A stretch of DNA of 64,000 bases from Escherichia coli (lineage in GTDB: Bacteria > Pseudomonadota > Gammaproteobacteria > Enterobacterales > Enterobacteriaceae): assembly GCF_048403405.1 (NCBI RefSeq), contig NZ_CP183129.1. One strand, given 5' to 3'. The translations under genes were made by a program, and so were the position numbers. The number at the start of each line of letters is the position of its first letter. Position 1 is the first letter of the stretch. The notes under the pieces were generated by a model. That model ran no database searches. It had not been told where the DNA came from and saw only the letters and a program-made list of their open reading frames with translations. Shown here piece by piece: positions 21,618 to 44,719 of this stretch.

Positions 21618-21871
21618 TCGCTAAATAATACAGCAACCTTTAATAATCTTCTGATGAATAAAGATTATCTCATATATTAATTTTATGAGATTTTTTTAGG
21701 ATTATATCAAGGAGAAGAAACGAACTTATTAAGCTAGAATAGCCACGGGTGCTTGAGACTGTTTGTCTCAGGTATTCACCGAAAGGCAGACAGAGAAAAG
21801 CCCCACCTGACTATAAATCAAAAGTGTACTGCACCCATTTTGTTGGACGATGAAATGGAATAGCCCCTAAT

Positions 21872-22393
21872 ATGTCAAAGCCAAAATACCCTTTTGAAAA
21901 GCGCCTTGAAGTCGTGAATCACTACTTCACAACTGATGATGGTTACAGGATCATCTCGGCACGTTTTGGTGTCCCCCGAACCCAGGTCAGGACATGGGTT
22001 GCCCTCTATGAAAAACATGGAGAAAAAGGTTTAATTCCCAAACCTAAAGGCGTTAGTGCTGATCCAGAGTTGCGTATTAAGGTCGTGAAAGCTGTGATCG
22101 AGCAGCACATGTCCCTTAATCAGGCTGCTGCTCACTTTATGCTTGCTGGTAGTGGTTCTGTAGCCAGGTGGCTGAAGGTCTATGAAGAGCGCGGAGAAGC
22201 TGGTTTACGCGCGCTCAAGATTGGCACCAAAAGAAACATTGCAATATCAGTTGATCCAGAAAAAGCGGCATCAGCATTGGAGCTGTCAAAAGACCGACGC
22301 ATTGAGGATCTTGAAAGGCAAGTTCGATTTCTTGAAACGCGGCTTATGTATCTAAAAAAGCTGAAAGCCTTAGCTCATCCCACGAAAAAGTAA
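21872..22393 (+). CDS. insJ: IS150 OrfA (173 aa, HTH DNA-binding)
   Basis: 173-aa ORF inside IS150 left part. Confidence 0.9.
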   Translation: MSKPKYPFEKRLEVVNHYFTTDDGYRIISARFGVPRTQVRTWVALYEKHGEKGLIPKPKGVSADPELRIKVVKAVIEQHMSLNQAAAHFMLAGSGSVARWLKVYEERGEAGLRALKIGTKRNIAISVDPEKAASALELSKDRRIEDLERQVRFLETRLMYLKKLKALAHPTKK

Positions 22394-23627: not shown

Positions 23628-23656
23628 AAAAAAATCCCCGCCAAATGGCAGGGATC
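23628..23656 (-). terminator. rho-independent terminator of cspA
   Basis: On the minus strand: ccctgccatttggcgggga followed by TTTTTTT, 27 bp after the cspA stop. Confidence 0.55.
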
Positions 23657-23682
23657 TTAGATTCTGTGCTTTTAAGCAGAGA

Positions 23683-23895
23683 TTACAGGCTGGTTACGTT
23701 ACCAGCTGCCGGGCCTTTAGCGCCGCTTTCGATGGTGAAGGACACTTTCTGACCTTCGTCCAGAGATTTGTAACCATCGTTCTGGATAGCAGAGAAGTGT
23801 ACGAACACGTCTTTAGAGCCATCGTCAGGAGTGATGAAGCCGAAGCCTTTGTCAGCGTTGAACCATTTTACGATACCAGTCATTTTACCGGACAT
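23683..23895 (-). CDS. cspA: major cold-shock protein CspA (70 aa)
   Basis: [21 protein letters not shown]... with RNP1/RNP2 motifs. Confidence 0.95.
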
Positions 23896-24091
23896 AGTGT
23901 ATTACCTTTAATAATTAAGTGTGCCTTTCGGCGATATGGCGTGCTTTACAGATTTTGAAGCGTTAAAGGAATGTGCACTACGAGGGGTATCAACGATAAC
24001 TCTTGAAGGGACTTGCCTTACTACACTGCTTTAATGGTCTGTACGTCAAACCGTTGATGTGCATTAAGCCACGCATTGGCGGGTGTTGCAA
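23896..24091 (-). promoter_or_regulatory. cspA promoter and 159-nt 5' UTR
   Basis: -10 CTTAAT (24063-24068) and -35 TTGCAA (24086-24091) with 17-bp spacing; transcript start ACGGUUUGACG maps to about 24054; AT-rich upstream element. Confidence 0.6.
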
Positions 24092-33252: not shown

Positions 33253-33468
33253 ACTGCTTTTTGTAACGCTAAAGTCTCTTTTCAAACTTGCATTTTTGTA
33301 AATTTGTGCTTCATGCACATTCTTTCCCCACACTTTTTCCCTTTGCTGTGGTCTACTTATTCGCGCGTGTAGATTTTACTTATCTGACTACCTCCGCACT
33401 TTTCCCCTGCCGGGCCCGAAAAGCCGTTAAGCAGGGTGTTATCACCTGTTTGCCCAGGGTTTGTTTGC

Positions 33469-35160
33469 ATGAGATACATCAAATCGATTACACAGCAGAA
33501 GCTGAGCTTTTTGCTTGCAATCTATATTGGCCTTTTTATGAATGGCGCGGTTTTTTACCGCCGCTTCGGCAGCTATGCGCACGATTTTACCGTCTGGAAA
33601 GGCATTTCTGCTGTTGTTGAACTGGCCGCCACCGTACTGGTGACCTTCTTTTTACTACGTCTTCTTTCGCTGTTTGGCCGCCGTAGCTGGCGTATTCTGG
33701 CGTCGCTGGTGGTGCTCTTTTCCGCAGGTGCCAGCTATTACATGACCTTCCTTAATGTGGTCATTGGTTATGGCATCATCGCTTCCGTCATGACCACCGA
33801 TATCGACCTGTCAAAAGAAGTTGTTGGTCTGAACTTTATTCTCTGGTTAATCGCCGTTAGCGCATTGCCTCTTATCCTTATCTGGAATAACCGCTGTCGC
33901 TACACCTTGCTCCGACAACTGCGAACCCCAGGGCAGCGTATTCGCAGCCTGGCGGTCGTCGTACTGGCGGGTATTATGGTTTGGGCACCGATTCGTTTGC
34001 TGGATATCCAGCAGAAGAAAGTGGAGAGGGCGACCGGTGTTGATTTGCCCAGCTATGGCGGCGTCGTAGCGAACTCTTATCTGCCATCAAACTGGCTTTC
34101 GGCATTGGGGCTGTATGCCTGGGCGCGGGTCGATGAATCTTCCGATAATAATTCATTGCTTAACCCGGCGAAGAAATTCACTTATCAGGCACCGCAAAAC
34201 GTTGATGACACTTATGTCGTGTTTATCATCGGTGAAACCACGCGTTGGGACCATATGGGCATTTTCGGCTATGAGCGTAATACCACGCCGAAGCTGGCCC
34301 AGGAGAAAAATCTGGCGGCGTTCCGTGGCTATTCTTGTGACACGGCGACCAAACTTTCTCTGCGTTGCATGTTTGTACGAGAGGGTGGGGCGGAAGATAA
34401 TCCGCAGCGCACATTAAAAGAACAGAACATTTTCGCGGTATTGAAGCAGTTAGGATTCAGTTCTGATCTCTACGCTATGCAAAGCGAAATGTGGTTCTAC
34501 AGCAACACGATGGCAGACAACATTGCTTATCGTGAGCAGATTGGTGCGGAGCCACGTAACCGTGGCAAGCCGGTAGATGATATGTTGCTGGTAGACGAAA
34601 TGCAGCAATCGCTGGGGCGCAACCCGGATGGTAAGCATCTGATCATTCTGCATACCAAAGGTTCGCACTTTAACTACACCCAGCGTTACCCGCGCAGCTT
34701 TGCGCAGTGGAAGCCGGAATGTATTGGTGTTGATAGCGGCTGTACCAAAGCGCAGATGATCAACTCCTATGACAACTCGGTGACCTATGTGGATCACTTT
34801 ATCTCCAGCGTGATTGATCAGGTTCGCGATAAGAAAGCGATTGTGTTCTACGCAGCTGACCACGGTGAGTCAATTAATGAACGCGAGCACCTGCACGGCA
34901 CGCCGCGTGAACTGGCACCGCCGGAGCAGTTCCGTGTGCCGATGATGGTCTGGATGTCAGATAAATATCTGGAAAATCCGGTCAATGCGCAAGCATTTGC
35001 GCAGCTGAAAAAAGAAGCCGACATGAAAGTGCCACGCCGTCACGTAGAGCTGTACGACACCATCATGGGTTGTCTTGGCTATACTTCACCGGATGGTGGA
35101 ATTAACGAAAACAACAACTGGTGCCACATCCCGCAGGCAAGAGAGGCGGCGGCTAACTAA
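33469..35160 (+). CDS. eptB: Kdo2-lipid A phosphoethanolamine transferase (563 aa)
   Basis: N-terminal TM domain plus sulfatase-like periplasmic domain; start at [10 protein letters not shown]. Confidence 0.88.
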
Positions 35161-35210
35161 GCGGCCTGCTGACTTTCTCGCCGATCAAAAGGCATTTTGC
35201 TATTAAGGGA

Positions 35211-35239
35211 TTGACGAGGGCGTATCTGCGCAGTAAGAT
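35211..35239 (+). promoter_or_regulatory. proK promoter
   Basis: -35 TTGACG (35211-35216), 17-bp spacer, -10 TAAGAT (35234-35239), then GC-rich discriminator gcgccccgc. Confidence 0.6.
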
Positions 35240-35251
35240 GCGCCCCGCATT

Positions 35252-35328
<77 letters not shown>

Positions 35329-35664
35329 AATTCGAAATGCCTGCTCAGCGAGCAGGCTTTTTTGCATTTGTAGCTCATGAGGATGAGAACCTCCGGGGGC
35401 GGGGAGGTTCGACTCGAGCGAAGCGAGAGAACGTTGCGCCAGCAACGGCCCGCAGGGCGAGCCACGAAGTGGCGAGTAATCCTCTATCACCGACCAAATT
35501 CGAAAAGCCTGCTCAGCGAGCAGGCTTTTTTGCATCTGCAGCCCATGAGGATGAGAACCTCCGGGGGCAGGGAGGTTCGACTCGAGCGAAGCGAGAGAAC
35601 GTTGCGCCAGCAACGGCCCGCAGGGCGAGCCACGAAGTGGCGAGTAATCCTCTGGCACCGACCA
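35329..35664 (+). repeat. two tandem 168-bp direct repeats after proK, each with a terminator-like hairpin and a copy of the tRNA-Pro 3' end
   Basis: Unit 1 35329-35496, unit 2 35497-35664, about 95% identical; each has gcctgctcagcgagcaggcTTTTTT and ends in aatcctct(a/g)(t/g)caccgacca. Confidence 0.85.
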
Positions 35665-36260
35665 AATTCGGCACCGCACTCATTGTGGGATACAGCGTAT
35701 CCGTCTTATCCGATCTAAACGGCAACACACCACACATTTCCCTGCCAAATTTGCGCCCCATATCTCACTATCCATTAATGGATTTGTGACAGAAACCATT
35801 GTCTTTTTTTATATTTGCTTAAATCTTTTTTTGCGTTACTTATGACTGGCGCTGGCATTTTCCGCTGTGCGTTTTAGCGTTCATGGTATTAATCGCTCAG
35901 ATATCCACCTTTTCCTCAGATTTTTTTCACTAAATGCATAAAACTTAATCACCAAATGTTGCTAAATATTAAGCTGATTGTTCTGGTCATGTTGGAGTAG
36001 CACAAATTTCTCTGCTGCAAATAGCGGTTTGAAGTTTTTTTAATCTTTGTTTGTGGATTCTCACCGTTGGTGTAAATCCCGGTTGGCTGTATTGACGTTT
36101 TCACATTCTGTTGACAGATTGTAGGTCACGAGGGGCATTTTATGGAGGATCCGCACTGTTACACTGATGTTAATTAGTACGGCATCCCCACCTCATAACG
36201 TTGACCCGACCGGGCAAAAAACAAAAAAGGTCAGGCGGCGACAACCCACTGCAAAGGGTT

Positions 36261-36292: not shown

Positions 36293-37900
36293 ATGCGTAT
36301 TTCCTTGAAAAAGTCAGGGATGCTGAAGCTTGGTCTCAGCCTGGTGGCTATGACCGTCGCAGCAAGTGTTCAGGCTAAAACTCTGGTTTATTGCTCAGAA
36401 GGATCTCCGGAAGGGTTTAACCCGCAGTTGTTTACCTCCGGTACTACCTATGACGCCTCTTCCGTGCCGCTTTATAACCGCCTGGTTGAATTTAAAATCG
36501 GCACCACCGAAGTGATCCCGGGCCTCGCTGAAAAGTGGGAAGTCAGCGAAGACGGTAAAACCTATACCTTCCATCTGCGTAAAGGTGTGAAGTGGCACGA
36601 CAATAAAGAATTCAAACCGACGCGCGAACTGAACGCCGATGACGTGGTGTTCTCGTTCGATCGTCAGAAAAACGCGCAAAACCCGTACCATAAAGTTTCT
36701 GGCGGTAGCTACGAATACTTTGAAGGCATGGGCTTGCCGGAGCTGATCAGCGAAGTGAAAAAGGTGGACGACAACACCGTTCAGTTTGTGCTGACTCGAC
36801 CGGAAGCGCCGTTCCTCGCTGACCTGGCAATGGACTTCGCCTCTATTCTGTCAAAAGAATATGCTGACGCGATGATGAAAGCCGGTACACCGGAAAAACT
36901 GGACCTCAACCCAATCGGCACCGGTCCGTTCCAGTTACAGCAGTACCAAAAAGATTCCCGTATCCGCTACAAAGCGTTTGATGGCTACTGGGGCACCAAA
37001 CCGCAGATCGATACGCTGGTTTTCTCTATTACCCCTGATGCTTCCGTGCGTTACGCGAAATTGCAGAAGAATGAATGCCAGGTGATGCCGTACCCGAACC
37101 CGGCAGACATCGCTCGCATGAAGCAGGATAAATCCATCAACCTGATGGAAATGCCGGGGCTGAACGTCGGCTATCTTTCATATAACGTGCAGAAAAAACC
37201 ACTCGATGATGTGAAAGTTCGCCAGGCTCTGACCTACGCGGTGAACAAAGACGCGATCATCAAAGCGGTTTATCAGGGCGCGGGCGTGGCAGCGAAAAAC
37301 CTGATCCCGCCAACCATGTGGGGCTATAACGACGACGTTCAGGACTACACCTACGATCCCGAAAAAGCGAAAGCCTTGCTGAAAGAAGCGGGCCTGGAAA
37401 AAGGCTTCTCCATCGACCTGTGGGCAATGCCGGTACAACGTCCGTATAACCCGAACGCTCGCCGCATGGCGGAGATGATTCAGGCAGACTGGGCGAAAGT
37501 CGGCGTGCAGGCCAAAATTGTCACCTACGAATGGGGTGAGTACCTCAAGCGTGCGAAAGATGGCGAGCACCAGACGGTAATGATGGGCTGGACTGGCGAT
37601 AATGGGGATCCGGATAACTTCTTCGCCACCCTGTTCAGCTGCGCCGCCTCTGAACAAGGCTCCAACTACTCAAAATGGTGCTACAAACCGTTTGAAGATC
37701 TGATTCAACCGGCGCGTGCTACCGACGACCATAACAAACGCGTTGAACTGTACAAGCAAGCGCAGGTGGTGATGCACGATCAGGCTCCGGCACTGATCAT
37801 CGCTCACTCCACCGTGTTTGAACCGGTACGCAAAGAAGTTAAAGGCTATGTGGTTGATCCATTAGGCAAACATCACTTCGAAAACGTCTCTATCGAATAA
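36293..37900 (+). CDS. dppA: dipeptide ABC transporter periplasmic binding protein (535 aa)
   Basis: 535-aa ORF with signal peptide; recognised DppA; followed by dppBCDF. Confidence 0.95.
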   Translation: MRISLKKSGMLKLGLSLVAMTVAASVQAKTLVYCSEGSPEGFNPQLFTSGTTYDASSVPLYNRLVEFKIGTTEVIPGLAEKWEVSEDGKTYTFHLRKGVKWHDNKEFKPTRELNADDVVFSFDRQKNAQNPYHKVSGGSYEYFEGMGLPELISEVKKVDDNTVQFVLTRPEAPFLADLAMDFASILSKEYADAMMKAGTPEKLDLNPIGTGPFQLQQYQKDSRIRYKAFDGYWGTKPQIDTLVFSITPDASVRYAKLQKNECQVMPYPNPADIARMKQDKSINLMEMPGLNVGYLSYNVQKKPLDDVKVRQALTYAVNKDAIIKAVYQGAGVAAKNLIPPTMWGYNDDVQDYTYDPEKAKALLKEAGLEKGFSIDLWAMPVQRPYNPNARRMAEMIQADWAKVGVQAKIVTYEWGEYLKRAKDGEHQTVMMGWTGDNGDPDNFFATLFSCAASEQGSNYSKWCYKPFEDLIQPARATDDHNKRVELYKQAQVVMHDQAPALIIAHSTVFEPVRKEVKGYVVDPLGKHHFENVSIE

Positions 37901-43278: not shown

Positions 43279-43753
43279 AAAGTCCTGTCCAGAAAGAAGT
43301 CGGCCTCGCAAAAATGAATAAACCCAGTTTCTCTTGCGCAACAGGTGGAGAAGTCGAATACGCAGTATGTAAAAAATGAGGCAACAGATTCACTGGGGAG
43401 GTCGCGAGTAGGCGCAATTCTACAAAATTGCGCATTTCACTACCAGTCTGGAGTCAGCCCGGATATGAACTGCAACTATTGCAAATAAAGAAATTAAGCT
43501 GGAAGGCATCGCGCAATGAGGAAGATTGCCGGGTGCTGACGGTAAAAAGCAATCGTAGAATCAGCGGCAAGCCGGAAAGGTTCCGGTGAGGCGCAATGTT
43601 GCGGGGGCTTTATCCCTGGTGGCATTGGTTGCTGGAGAGAGAAAACCCCCGCACGTTGCAGGTATGCACCTGACAACATCACGGGGGCCATTCTTGAACC
43701 TACACAACTCAAGAATAGCCGCGAAACGTTGTCATTACAACAGAGGCGGCTAT

Positions 43754-43861
43754 ATGACGCTCGCAGAGCTGGGCATGGCCTTCTGGCACGATTTAGCGGC
43801 TCCGGTCATTGCTGGCATTCTTGCCAGCATGATCGTGAACTGGCTGAACAAGCAGAAGTAA
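43754..43861 (+). CDS. Ldr-family type I toxin peptide, copy 1 (35 aa, ...NWLNKQK)
   Basis: MTLAELGMAFWHDLAAPVIAGILASMIVNWLNKQK; ATG at 43754. Confidence 0.8.
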   Translation: MTLAELGMAFWHDLAAPVIAGILASMIVNWLNKQK

Positions 43862-44236
43862 CGTGTCAGACGGGCGTCAGGCTGCCGTAATGGCAATTTG
43901 CGCCCGGATCAGGCCGCAGGGATAAAACTCTGCGGCCTTTTTCGTAAGAAAAATGCAACGGTTGCAAGCGGATAATATTCTGCGGAATGCGCAGCACAGA
44001 GTGAAGAAGTGACGGATTCCGGAACAGAAAAACAGTCGTAGAATCAGCGGCAAGCCGGAAGGGTTCCGGTGAGGCGCAATGTTGCGGGGGCTTAATCCCT
44101 GGTGGCATTGGTTGCTGGAGAGAGAAAACCCCCGCACGTTGCAGGTATGCACCTGACAACACCACGGGGGCCATTCTTGCATCCAAACAATACAAGAATA
44201 GCCGCGAAACGTTGTCATTACAACAGAGGCGGCTAT

Positions 44237-44344
44237 ATGACGCTCGCAGAGCTGGGCATGGCCTTCTGGCATGATTTAGCGGCTCCGGTCATTGCTGGCA
44301 TTCTTGCCAGCATGATCGTGAACTGGCTGAATAAGCGGAAGTAA
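44237..44344 (+). CDS. Ldr-family type I toxin peptide, copy 2 (35 aa, ...NWLNKRK)
   Basis: MTLAELGMAFWHDLAAPVIAGILASMIVNWLNKRK; 483 bp after copy 1. Confidence 0.8.
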   Translation: MTLAELGMAFWHDLAAPVIAGILASMIVNWLNKRK

Positions 44345-44719
44345 CGTGTCAGACGGGCGTCAGGCTGCCGTAATGGCAATTTGCGCCCGGACCAGGCCGC
44401 AGGGATAAAACTCTGCGGCCTTTTTCGTAAGAAAAATGCAACGGTTGCAAGCGGATAATATTCTGCGGAATGCGCAGCACAGAGTGAAGAAGTGATGGAT
44501 TCCGGAACAGAAAAACAGTCGTAGAATCAGCGGCAAGCCGGAAAGGTTCCGGTGAGGCGCAATGTTGCGGGGGCTTAATCCCTGGTGGCATTGGTTGCTG
44601 GAGAGAGAAAACCCCCGCACGTTGCAGGTATGCACCTGACAACACCACGGGGGCCATTCTTGCATCTAGACCATTCAAGAATAGCCGCGAAACGTTGTCA
44701 TTACAACAGAGGCGGCTAT

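Follow-up and report, generated by a model that had tools for sequence, protein, structure and literature searches.

The tRNA-linked repeats (TLRs) of Escherichia coli, which Egan and Landy reported in 1978 as the first to do so and which Rudd listed in 1999, are elements whose 18-19-bp 3' end is identical to that of the tRNA or rRNA upstream, and K-12 has 22 copies of them at 10 loci (PMC8144298). An early proposal that TLRs act in the stringent response has since been withdrawn, and none of them has been assigned a function since 1978 (PMC8144298). A strain without all 22 TLRs was built, and the K-12 deletion for rpK, the one of these 22 at the proK locus, is 3706471-3706638 in older MG1655 coordinates, i.e., 168 bp adjoining proK (supplement of PMC8144298). 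It is this known element, rpK in EcoGene and RtT RNA in Rfam, that is present as two full copies in the E. coli DNA analysed here, a stretch of 64,000 nucleotides that we refer to as the window. K-12 rpK has the same locus and the same 168-bp unit and aligns unit for unit with the window (the older MG1655 coordinates are offset by 1977 bp from NC_000913.3), but K-12 has one full unit and a second one truncated after GGTTCGACTCGA by a REP pair, whereas the window has two full units, a GG end and a decayed REP-like sequence.

The 178-bp repeats of tyrT/tyrV are reportedly the rttR repeats of Egan and Landy in 1978 and of Bosl and Kersten in 1991. Their similarities to the proK units are extensive: both belong to family RF00391, in both, a 5' arm that complements the T arm is accompanied by the GAUGAGAAC motif, a split T arm and the core GAGCG.AGCGAGA..CGUUGC...GCAACG.CCCG.AGGG, both have a 3' end that copies the cognate tRNA, and both form tandem arrays directly downstream of a tRNA gene on the same strand. 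The differences are a period of 168 bp at proK versus 178 bp at tyrT, ends that correspond to tRNA-Pro(CGG) versus tRNA-Tyr, and a strong intrinsic terminator before each proK unit, which none of the 36 Tyr-linked first units among the matches listed possesses. In addition, the proK core is ~0.73 identical to Tyr-type units, and the tpr stop codon is absent at proK.

More distant precedents also exist. The repeats rrA, rrB and rrF, flanked by the dual terminators of rrnA, rrnB and rrnD, resemble the proK units in following a stable-RNA gene behind its first terminator, and are typical of the TLR kind in ending in an 18-bp copy of the gene 3' end; they are transcribed via read-through of that first terminator and then processed at the duplicated end (PMC8144298). 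Unlike the proK units, they are linked to 5S rRNA, have a different sequence, and bind Hfq and CsrA via GGA motifs, and the 19 tRNA-linked TLRs have CsrA-binding scores below 0.01 (PMC8144298). The 3'ETS-leuZ RNA is likewise a functional by-product of a tRNA precursor that is freed by tRNA-processing nucleases (PMC8144298), but it is a short, unstructured sRNA-sponge spacer with neither a copy of the tRNA 3' end, nor the core, nor tandem repeats. Finally, the att sites of tRNA-targeting elements share with the proK units a direct repeat that covers the tRNA 3' end from the T loop onwards, and differ from them in that the proK array is without integrase or cargo and its unit is conserved, structured and, by comparison across genera, vertically inherited.

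The proK locus and its 168-bp array

The single tRNA gene of the 64-kb window identified by ARAGORN, tRNA-Pro(CGG) at 35252-35328 on the + strand, is proK, and it is flanked by eptB (33436-35160) and dppA (36293-37900) in the same order as in E. coli K-12. An earlier note, made from the letters of this DNA, had described two 168-bp tandem repeats after proK, and that description was borne out, as Tandem Repeats Finder detected 2.1 copies of a 168-bp period (96% matches, 0 indels) at 35310-35670, and a repeat search returned two 168-nt copies of 97% identity. Chance cannot account for a 168-bp repeat with 96-97% identity. The first base of unit 1 (35329) directly follows the CCA of proK (35328), with both on the + strand, and 35329-35664 is one valid frame of the array. 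The features of the locus are:

35211-35239 (+): proK promoter, TTGACG, 17 nt, TAAGAT, then a GC-rich discriminator (consensus scan)
35252-35328 (+): proK, tRNA-Pro(CGG) with encoded CCA (ARAGORN; Rfam tRNA, 60.7 bits; identical to the tRNA annotated in E. coli genomes)
35329-35363 (+): trailer AAATTCGAAAT and intrinsic terminator 1, stem 35339-35357, T run 35358-35363 (terminator scan; inverted repeat I6)
35364-35496 (+): RtT unit 1 (RF00391 match; own model R1, 123.4 bits; minimum-free-energy fold of -51 kcal/mol)
35497-35531 (+): trailer copy 2 and intrinsic terminator 2, stem 35507-35525, T run 35526-35531 (sequence; inverted repeat I5)
35529-35664 (+): RtT unit 2 (RF00391, 99.1 bits; own model R1, 122.2 bits)
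35665-35670 (+): start of trailer copy 3 (AAATTC + G), the end of the repeated block (repeat family D2)
35671-35735 (no strand given): decayed REP-like sequence directly 3' of the array (by-eye comparison with alleles L002, L003 and L005)

Read from 5' to 3', each 168-bp unit opens with the tRNA trailer and an intrinsic terminator; next come a 5' arm that complements the T arm of tRNA-Pro and the 5' half of the T arm, then ~66 nt of conserved core containing three hairpins, and finally the 3' T-arm half, the acceptor 3' strand, CCA and, once more, trailer. The terminator-like hairpin with which, according to the earlier note, each unit starts is GCCTGCTCAGCGAGCAGGC followed by T6 at 35339-35363, and an identical stem is present at 35507-35531; the terminator scan listed the first hairpin only, and the second was identified from the sequence and from inverted repeat I5, whose 12-nt arms are 100% complementary. 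The second GC-rich hairpin of the note, GAACCTCC...GGAGGTTC (inverted repeat I2), was found in both units, and so was its T arm interrupted by a GC-rich insert, i.e., GGAGGTTCGA, ~66 nt, and then AATCCTCT. In unit 1 the 5' arm complementary to the T arm is GAGGAUGAGAACCUCC and the copied 5' half of the T arm is GGAGGUUCGA. The copies of the tRNA-Pro 3' end that the note had placed at the unit ends are identical to proK at 19/19 nt in unit 1 and, in unit 2, which ends in AATCCTCTGGCACCGACCA, at 17/19 nt. These ends are part of a 25-nt block, AATCCTCT(AT/GG)CACCGACCAAATTCG, that occurs three times (35310, 35478 and 35646) with a spacing of exactly 168 nt and that consists of 19 nt from the tRNA 3' end and the 6 nt of trailer after it (AATCCTCTATCACCGACCAAATTCG). 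Copy 2 of the block is the same as copy 1, and copy 3 differs at two positions, where AT has become GG.

In K-12, northern blots that included a terminator probe showed proK to be an efficiently terminated, monocistronic transcript of ~113 nt that ends at the first terminator, with no longer species reported, and RNase E was found to make the mature proK 3' end by cutting GACCA|AAUUCG directly after the CCA (PMC5291269). In the window the same site stands at the start of the trailer at 35329-35363, and it recurs after each unit. The possibility that each RtT unit has its own promoter was considered and rejected, as a consensus scan showed the proK promoter to be the sole promoter-like site upstream of the array, none inside the RtT units, and one other far downstream (35786-35815), with a total number of sites no greater than in shuffled sequence. 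Open reading frames of 192 aa (35211-35789, +) and 158 aa (35203-35679, -) span the tRNA and the whole array; they are not genes, and run through the array because its period of 168 equals 56 codons in GC-rich sequence.

Searches with Rfam and with our own model R1 detected no further RtT copies in the window. Elsewhere within it, three full-length matches to the rdlD antitoxin RNA (82-84 bits, 483 bp apart) at 43640-44671 (-) look like a tandem triplication of the ldr/rdl type I toxin-antitoxin module, where K-12 has a single ldrD/rdlD at the corresponding locus. At the Rfam gathering threshold there were also a sok-type antitoxin RNA at 21747-21901 (+; 83 bits) and the cspA 5'-UTR thermoregulator at 23628-24055 (-; 501 bits).

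The RtT family, its tRNA genes and its fold

The comparison with a covariance model that the earlier note had envisaged gave full-length matches for both units, i.e., RF00391 (RtT RNA) with 101.3 bits at 35363-35496 and 99.1 bits at 35529-35664, each over model positions 1-130 of 130 and well above the gathering score of 45, and the consensus structure was supported by conservation of pairs and by covariation. The four tyrT/tyrV repeats of K-12 match the same model (133-138 bits), and the likeness to the 178-bp tyrT repeats that the note had remarked upon is that of members of one Rfam family and one TLR family. Furthermore, PGAP had annotated "RtT sRNA" twice at these positions in an E. coli genome that is 100% identical over the query. 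The proK repeats are, in short, correctly recognized but ordinary, having been known since 1978 (tyrT) and 1999 (including rpK), placed in Rfam, and labelled automatically in RefSeq; what the earlier note missed was that the proK element is already named and annotated. A weak match to the Rfam family Aggregatibacter sRNA 22 (21 bits, below threshold) hints that relatives exist in the Pasteurellaceae, in line with reports of RtT there, e.g., RtT RNAs visible on northerns in Actinobacillus (PMC4986893).

A scan of one genome per species for the core pattern produced at least 120 stretches; the pattern fixes 24 core positions, and the "invariance" of the core is for that reason partly by construction. 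The matches listed were from Enterobacterales, Gilliamella, Marinobacterium and Amphritea (orders Enterobacterales, Orbales and Oceanospirillales), and among them the core follows six tRNA genes, tRNA-Tyr(GUA), Pro(CGG), Pro(UGG), Lys(UUU), Arg(ACG) and Arg(CCG). The 3' end copies the upstream tRNA on the same strand at 18/18 nt in 104 of the 137 units among these matches, and at 16/18 or better in 121. The opposite end of the element is also tailored to its location: the stretch that lies 5' of the GAUGAGAAC motif complements both the copied 3' strand of the T stem and the first acceptor bases of the local tRNA. For Tyr, the 5' arm and the tRNA segment are GGGGAAGGAU / AUCCUUCCCC, for Lys GUGCAGGAU / AUCCUGCAC, for Pro (A)GAGGAU / AUCCUC(U), and for Arg(CCG) GCCUGGAGGG / CCCUCCAGGC, and compensating changes within a single tRNA type were seen in L118 and L109. 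Duplex energies of arms against tails were clearly specific to the cognate pair for Tyr, Lys and Pro(UGG), and were not diagnostic for Pro(CGG), in which helix P1 is short.

How the cores are related to one another bears on the age of the proK element. With the tRNA-specific ends removed, the nearest core was at another locus of the same tRNA type for 109 of 118 units among the matches listed, and Tyr- and Pro-linked cores from one genome were 0.67-0.80 identical versus 0.78-0.91 for cores of the same type from other genera. Among the same matches, proK-type units are present in many genera of the Enterobacteriaceae with cores that are 0.89 identical across genera, and a terminator hairpin stands before the first unit in 23 of the 23 proK(CGG)-linked arrays of other genera versus 0 of 36 Tyr-linked ones. 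A GG-type end, CTGGCACCGACCA, is found on the last proK-linked unit in L016, L043, L101, L103 and L112, all from other genera of the Enterobacteriaceae, and the inner copies, unlike this diverged terminal copy, match the tRNA exactly. Since the GG-type end is common to those genera, the diverged terminal copy predates their split. Similarly, because the cores group by tRNA type across genera, they were inherited vertically and do not mark a recent integration, and on these comparisons we regard the proK-linked element as an old, vertically inherited companion of proK and not as a recent insertion.

Two unusual arrangements also came to light. At a tRNA-Tyr locus from the same scan (L124), the whole 5' part of tRNA-Tyr runs into the RtT core at TTCGA, which places the core in the T loop, and this chimera probably arose when the DNA between the GGTTCGA of the tRNA and that of the first unit was deleted. 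In addition, an uncultured Enterobacterales MAG has core matches (model positions ~22-118) at L069 156-246, L070 342-436 and L071 7801-7895 that have no tRNA-like 3' end and no tRNA nearby, i.e., the core also exists outside a tRNA-linked context.

RNAalifold applied to a MAFFT alignment detected the fold incompletely, since loops of varying length put helix P2 out of register, and for that reason the structure was set by hand (a closing helix P1, the GAACCUCC/GGAGGUUC hairpin P2 and three core hairpins) and evaluated against slid and shuffled controls. In unit 1 of the window, helix P1 joins 35379-35384 to 35479-35484 and helix P2 joins 35386-35393 to 35402-35409. In 47 non-redundant units representing six tRNA types, 89.5% of cells were paired versus 34-48% when the partners were slid by 1-3 columns, changes on both sides of a pair were seen in 121 cells versus 22-39 in the slid controls, and none of 500 shuffles, which ignore the relatedness between sequences, reached the observed value. 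A larger set of 141 units, in an alignment fitted to the model, agreed with this result (~90% paired versus up to 50% when slid). Changes on both sides affected 13 of the 32 pairs in the 47-unit alignment (A1) and 20 of 32 in the alignment fitted to the model (A2). A single unit folds modestly better than shuffled sequence (z = -1.8), and its minimum-free-energy fold leaves a single-stranded UAUCACCGACCA tail. In the predicted fold of a read-through precursor, the 5' arm can pair instead with the genuine T arm of proK (inverted repeat I3; 17 nt, 88% complementary). The covariation by which the 5' arm keeps its pairing with the copied tRNA 3' end indicates that the RNA fold is selected.

Unit number and array ends in E. 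coli

Alleles of the locus were fetched and put in register with the window, and the number of proK-linked units is clearly polymorphic among E. coli, ranging from about 0.6 to 2.6, in agreement with the earlier note, for which an absence of such variation would have counted against its reading:

L003 and L007: about 0.6 units
L004: 1 unit
K-12 type (L002 and L008): 1.6 units
the window and L001: 2 units
L005: 2.6 units

Strain GN02461 (NZ_CP095533.1) is another carrier of the two-unit allele. Of 5426 complete E. coli genomes, 2667 contained the junction between one unit and the next and 281 the window-type array end, and only 24 records had at least 99% identity over a 1-kb query. In approximately half of the complete genomes, the proK locus retains just a truncated unit that lacks the core. 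Within the species, two types of array end segregate. Arrays of the window type have a complete last unit with the GG variant, beyond which lies decayed REP-like sequence; in arrays of the K-12 type, an intact REP pair truncates the last unit after GGTTCGACTCGA and replaces its 3' half. The REP pair of L002, L003 and L005 matches Rfam naRNA4, and by comparison with it the segment at 35671-35735 in the window itself would be a REP as well. Two alleles have an insertion sequence in the REP pair between the array and dppA, i.e., IS621 (IS110 family) at 3197-4177 in L006 and IS1397 (IS3 family) at 2993-4341 in L007; both of these elements target REP sequences. The 25-bp and 168-bp direct repeats of the array would be obvious substrates for unequal recombination or slippage.

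Origin and possible role of the proK repeats

We consider it very likely that the array is what the comparisons above suggest, two tandem proK-linked TLRs with a conserved fold and a vertical line of descent, whose RNA would arise by read-through and be released by RNase E, and whose copy number would change through the repeats themselves. In such a scheme a minority of RNA polymerases would read through proK terminator 1, and RNase E would cut at each repeated GACCA|AAUUCG site to free one structured RNA of ~130-170 nt per unit. The freed RtT RNA would then fold into a P1-closed structure with a tRNA-like, single-stranded 3' tail ending in ...ACCA, and unequal recombination or replication slippage at the 25-bp and 168-bp repeats may account for changes in the number of units. 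Of the three origins offered in the earlier note, that of structured RNAs produced when proK is read through fits the comparative evidence (the fold and its compensatory changes) best, but abundant read-through is not seen in K-12 northerns (PMC5291269). Because of those northerns, and because the proK-linked first units follow a terminator, RtT RNA from proK may be rare or condition-specific.

Another supposition in the earlier note was that the units are decayed tRNA-gene duplications, i.e., functionless leftovers of partial copies that grow and shrink by unequal crossing-over and are kept as harmless. The supposition accounts well for the tRNA-derived ends: both T-arm halves and the exact 3' end are in each unit, Arg-linked copies in Yersinia extend 18 nt upstream of the T loop, and L124 fuses the whole 5' part of tRNA-Tyr to the core. 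Loss of the core at proK in half of E. coli genomes, the existence of the strain without all 22 TLRs, and the decades in which no function was assigned to any of them also agree with it. It does not account for the ~66-nt core, which is not derived from tRNA and yet is kept behind six tRNA genes in three orders, nor for compensatory helix changes well above the slid and shuffled controls. Moreover, the 5' arm changes with the cognate tRNA but has retained a loop of its own (UGAGAA), which copying of a T arm would not yield, and the proK-type cores retain their 0.89 identity across genera. We therefore think duplication alone an improbable explanation. The third origin in the note, a relic of site-specific integration, would make the units att-like repeats at a tRNA 3' end, possibly of a tiny non-autonomous element mobilised in trans. 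The region from the T loop through the tRNA 3' end is the target of many tRNA-targeting integrases, and the direct repeat of the array covers that region; tandem units flanked by a direct repeat also resemble tandem accretion, and one core is present at several tRNA genes. However, no integrase or remnant of one, no excisionase and no foreign gene or other foreign DNA was found at the array, where the ORFs are artefacts of the repeat frame; eptB and dppA are placed as in K-12, and the unit is only 168 bp. The cores cluster by tRNA type and not by genome, a distribution that follows descent with the locus and gives no sign of recent movement between loci, and an integration scar would leave the T-arm-complementary arm and the terminator unexplained. 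On the grounds of the missing integrase and cargo, the K-12 synteny and the grouping of cores by tRNA type, this origin was rejected as very improbable.

A coding function was also weighed, since the tyrT repeat contains Tpr, a 29-aa "protamine-like protein", and the proK units could in principle encode a similar Arg-rich peptide. An ORF similar in character to tpr starts from ATGs in CATGAGGATGAGAACC, and with a period of 56 codons its frames run through the whole array. Against this, there is no stop at the tpr position, and the frame stays open across the copied tRNA end and the terminator; 1-nt indels distinguish family members within the would-be ORF (GAGCGAAGCGAG, GAGCGAAAGCGAG and GAGCGCCAGCGAG); variation is compensatory in stems and not synonymous; and the sole Shine-Dalgarno-like GAGG is 1-2 nt from an ATG. 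The absence of a conserved stop, the indels and the poor ribosome-binding site led us to reject the peptide as unlikely, and among the alternatives we give it the least credence of all.

The lack of a longer species in K-12, the loss of the core in half of E. coli and the strain deleted for all 22 TLRs argue against an important role for the proK-linked TLRs, and because that strain could be built any RtT/TLR function is non-essential. A more ambitious suggestion, which we put forward tentatively and regard as doubtful, is that the units are not debris but a selected RNA device. An ancient core would have been equipped, locus by locus, with a 5' arm that pairs with the copied T stem and acceptor 3' strand of the adjacent tRNA, exposing an RNase E site and a single-stranded ...ACCA tail like that of the tRNA itself. 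The RNA could serve either as a cognate-specific decoy or modulator of the maturation, repair or surveillance of tRNA 3' ends, or, in precursors made by read-through, to sequester the upstream T arm with its 5' arm. The way in which the 5' arm covaries from locus to locus is compatible with such a device without proving it. If true, it would provide a function for a repeat family that has been without one since 1978. The natural proK alleles, from about 0.6 to 2.6 units, could be used to test an RNA-level role, and the presence of one core behind six tRNA genes in three orders of the Gammaproteobacteria, with tailored ends and compensatory changes, makes such a role worth testing.
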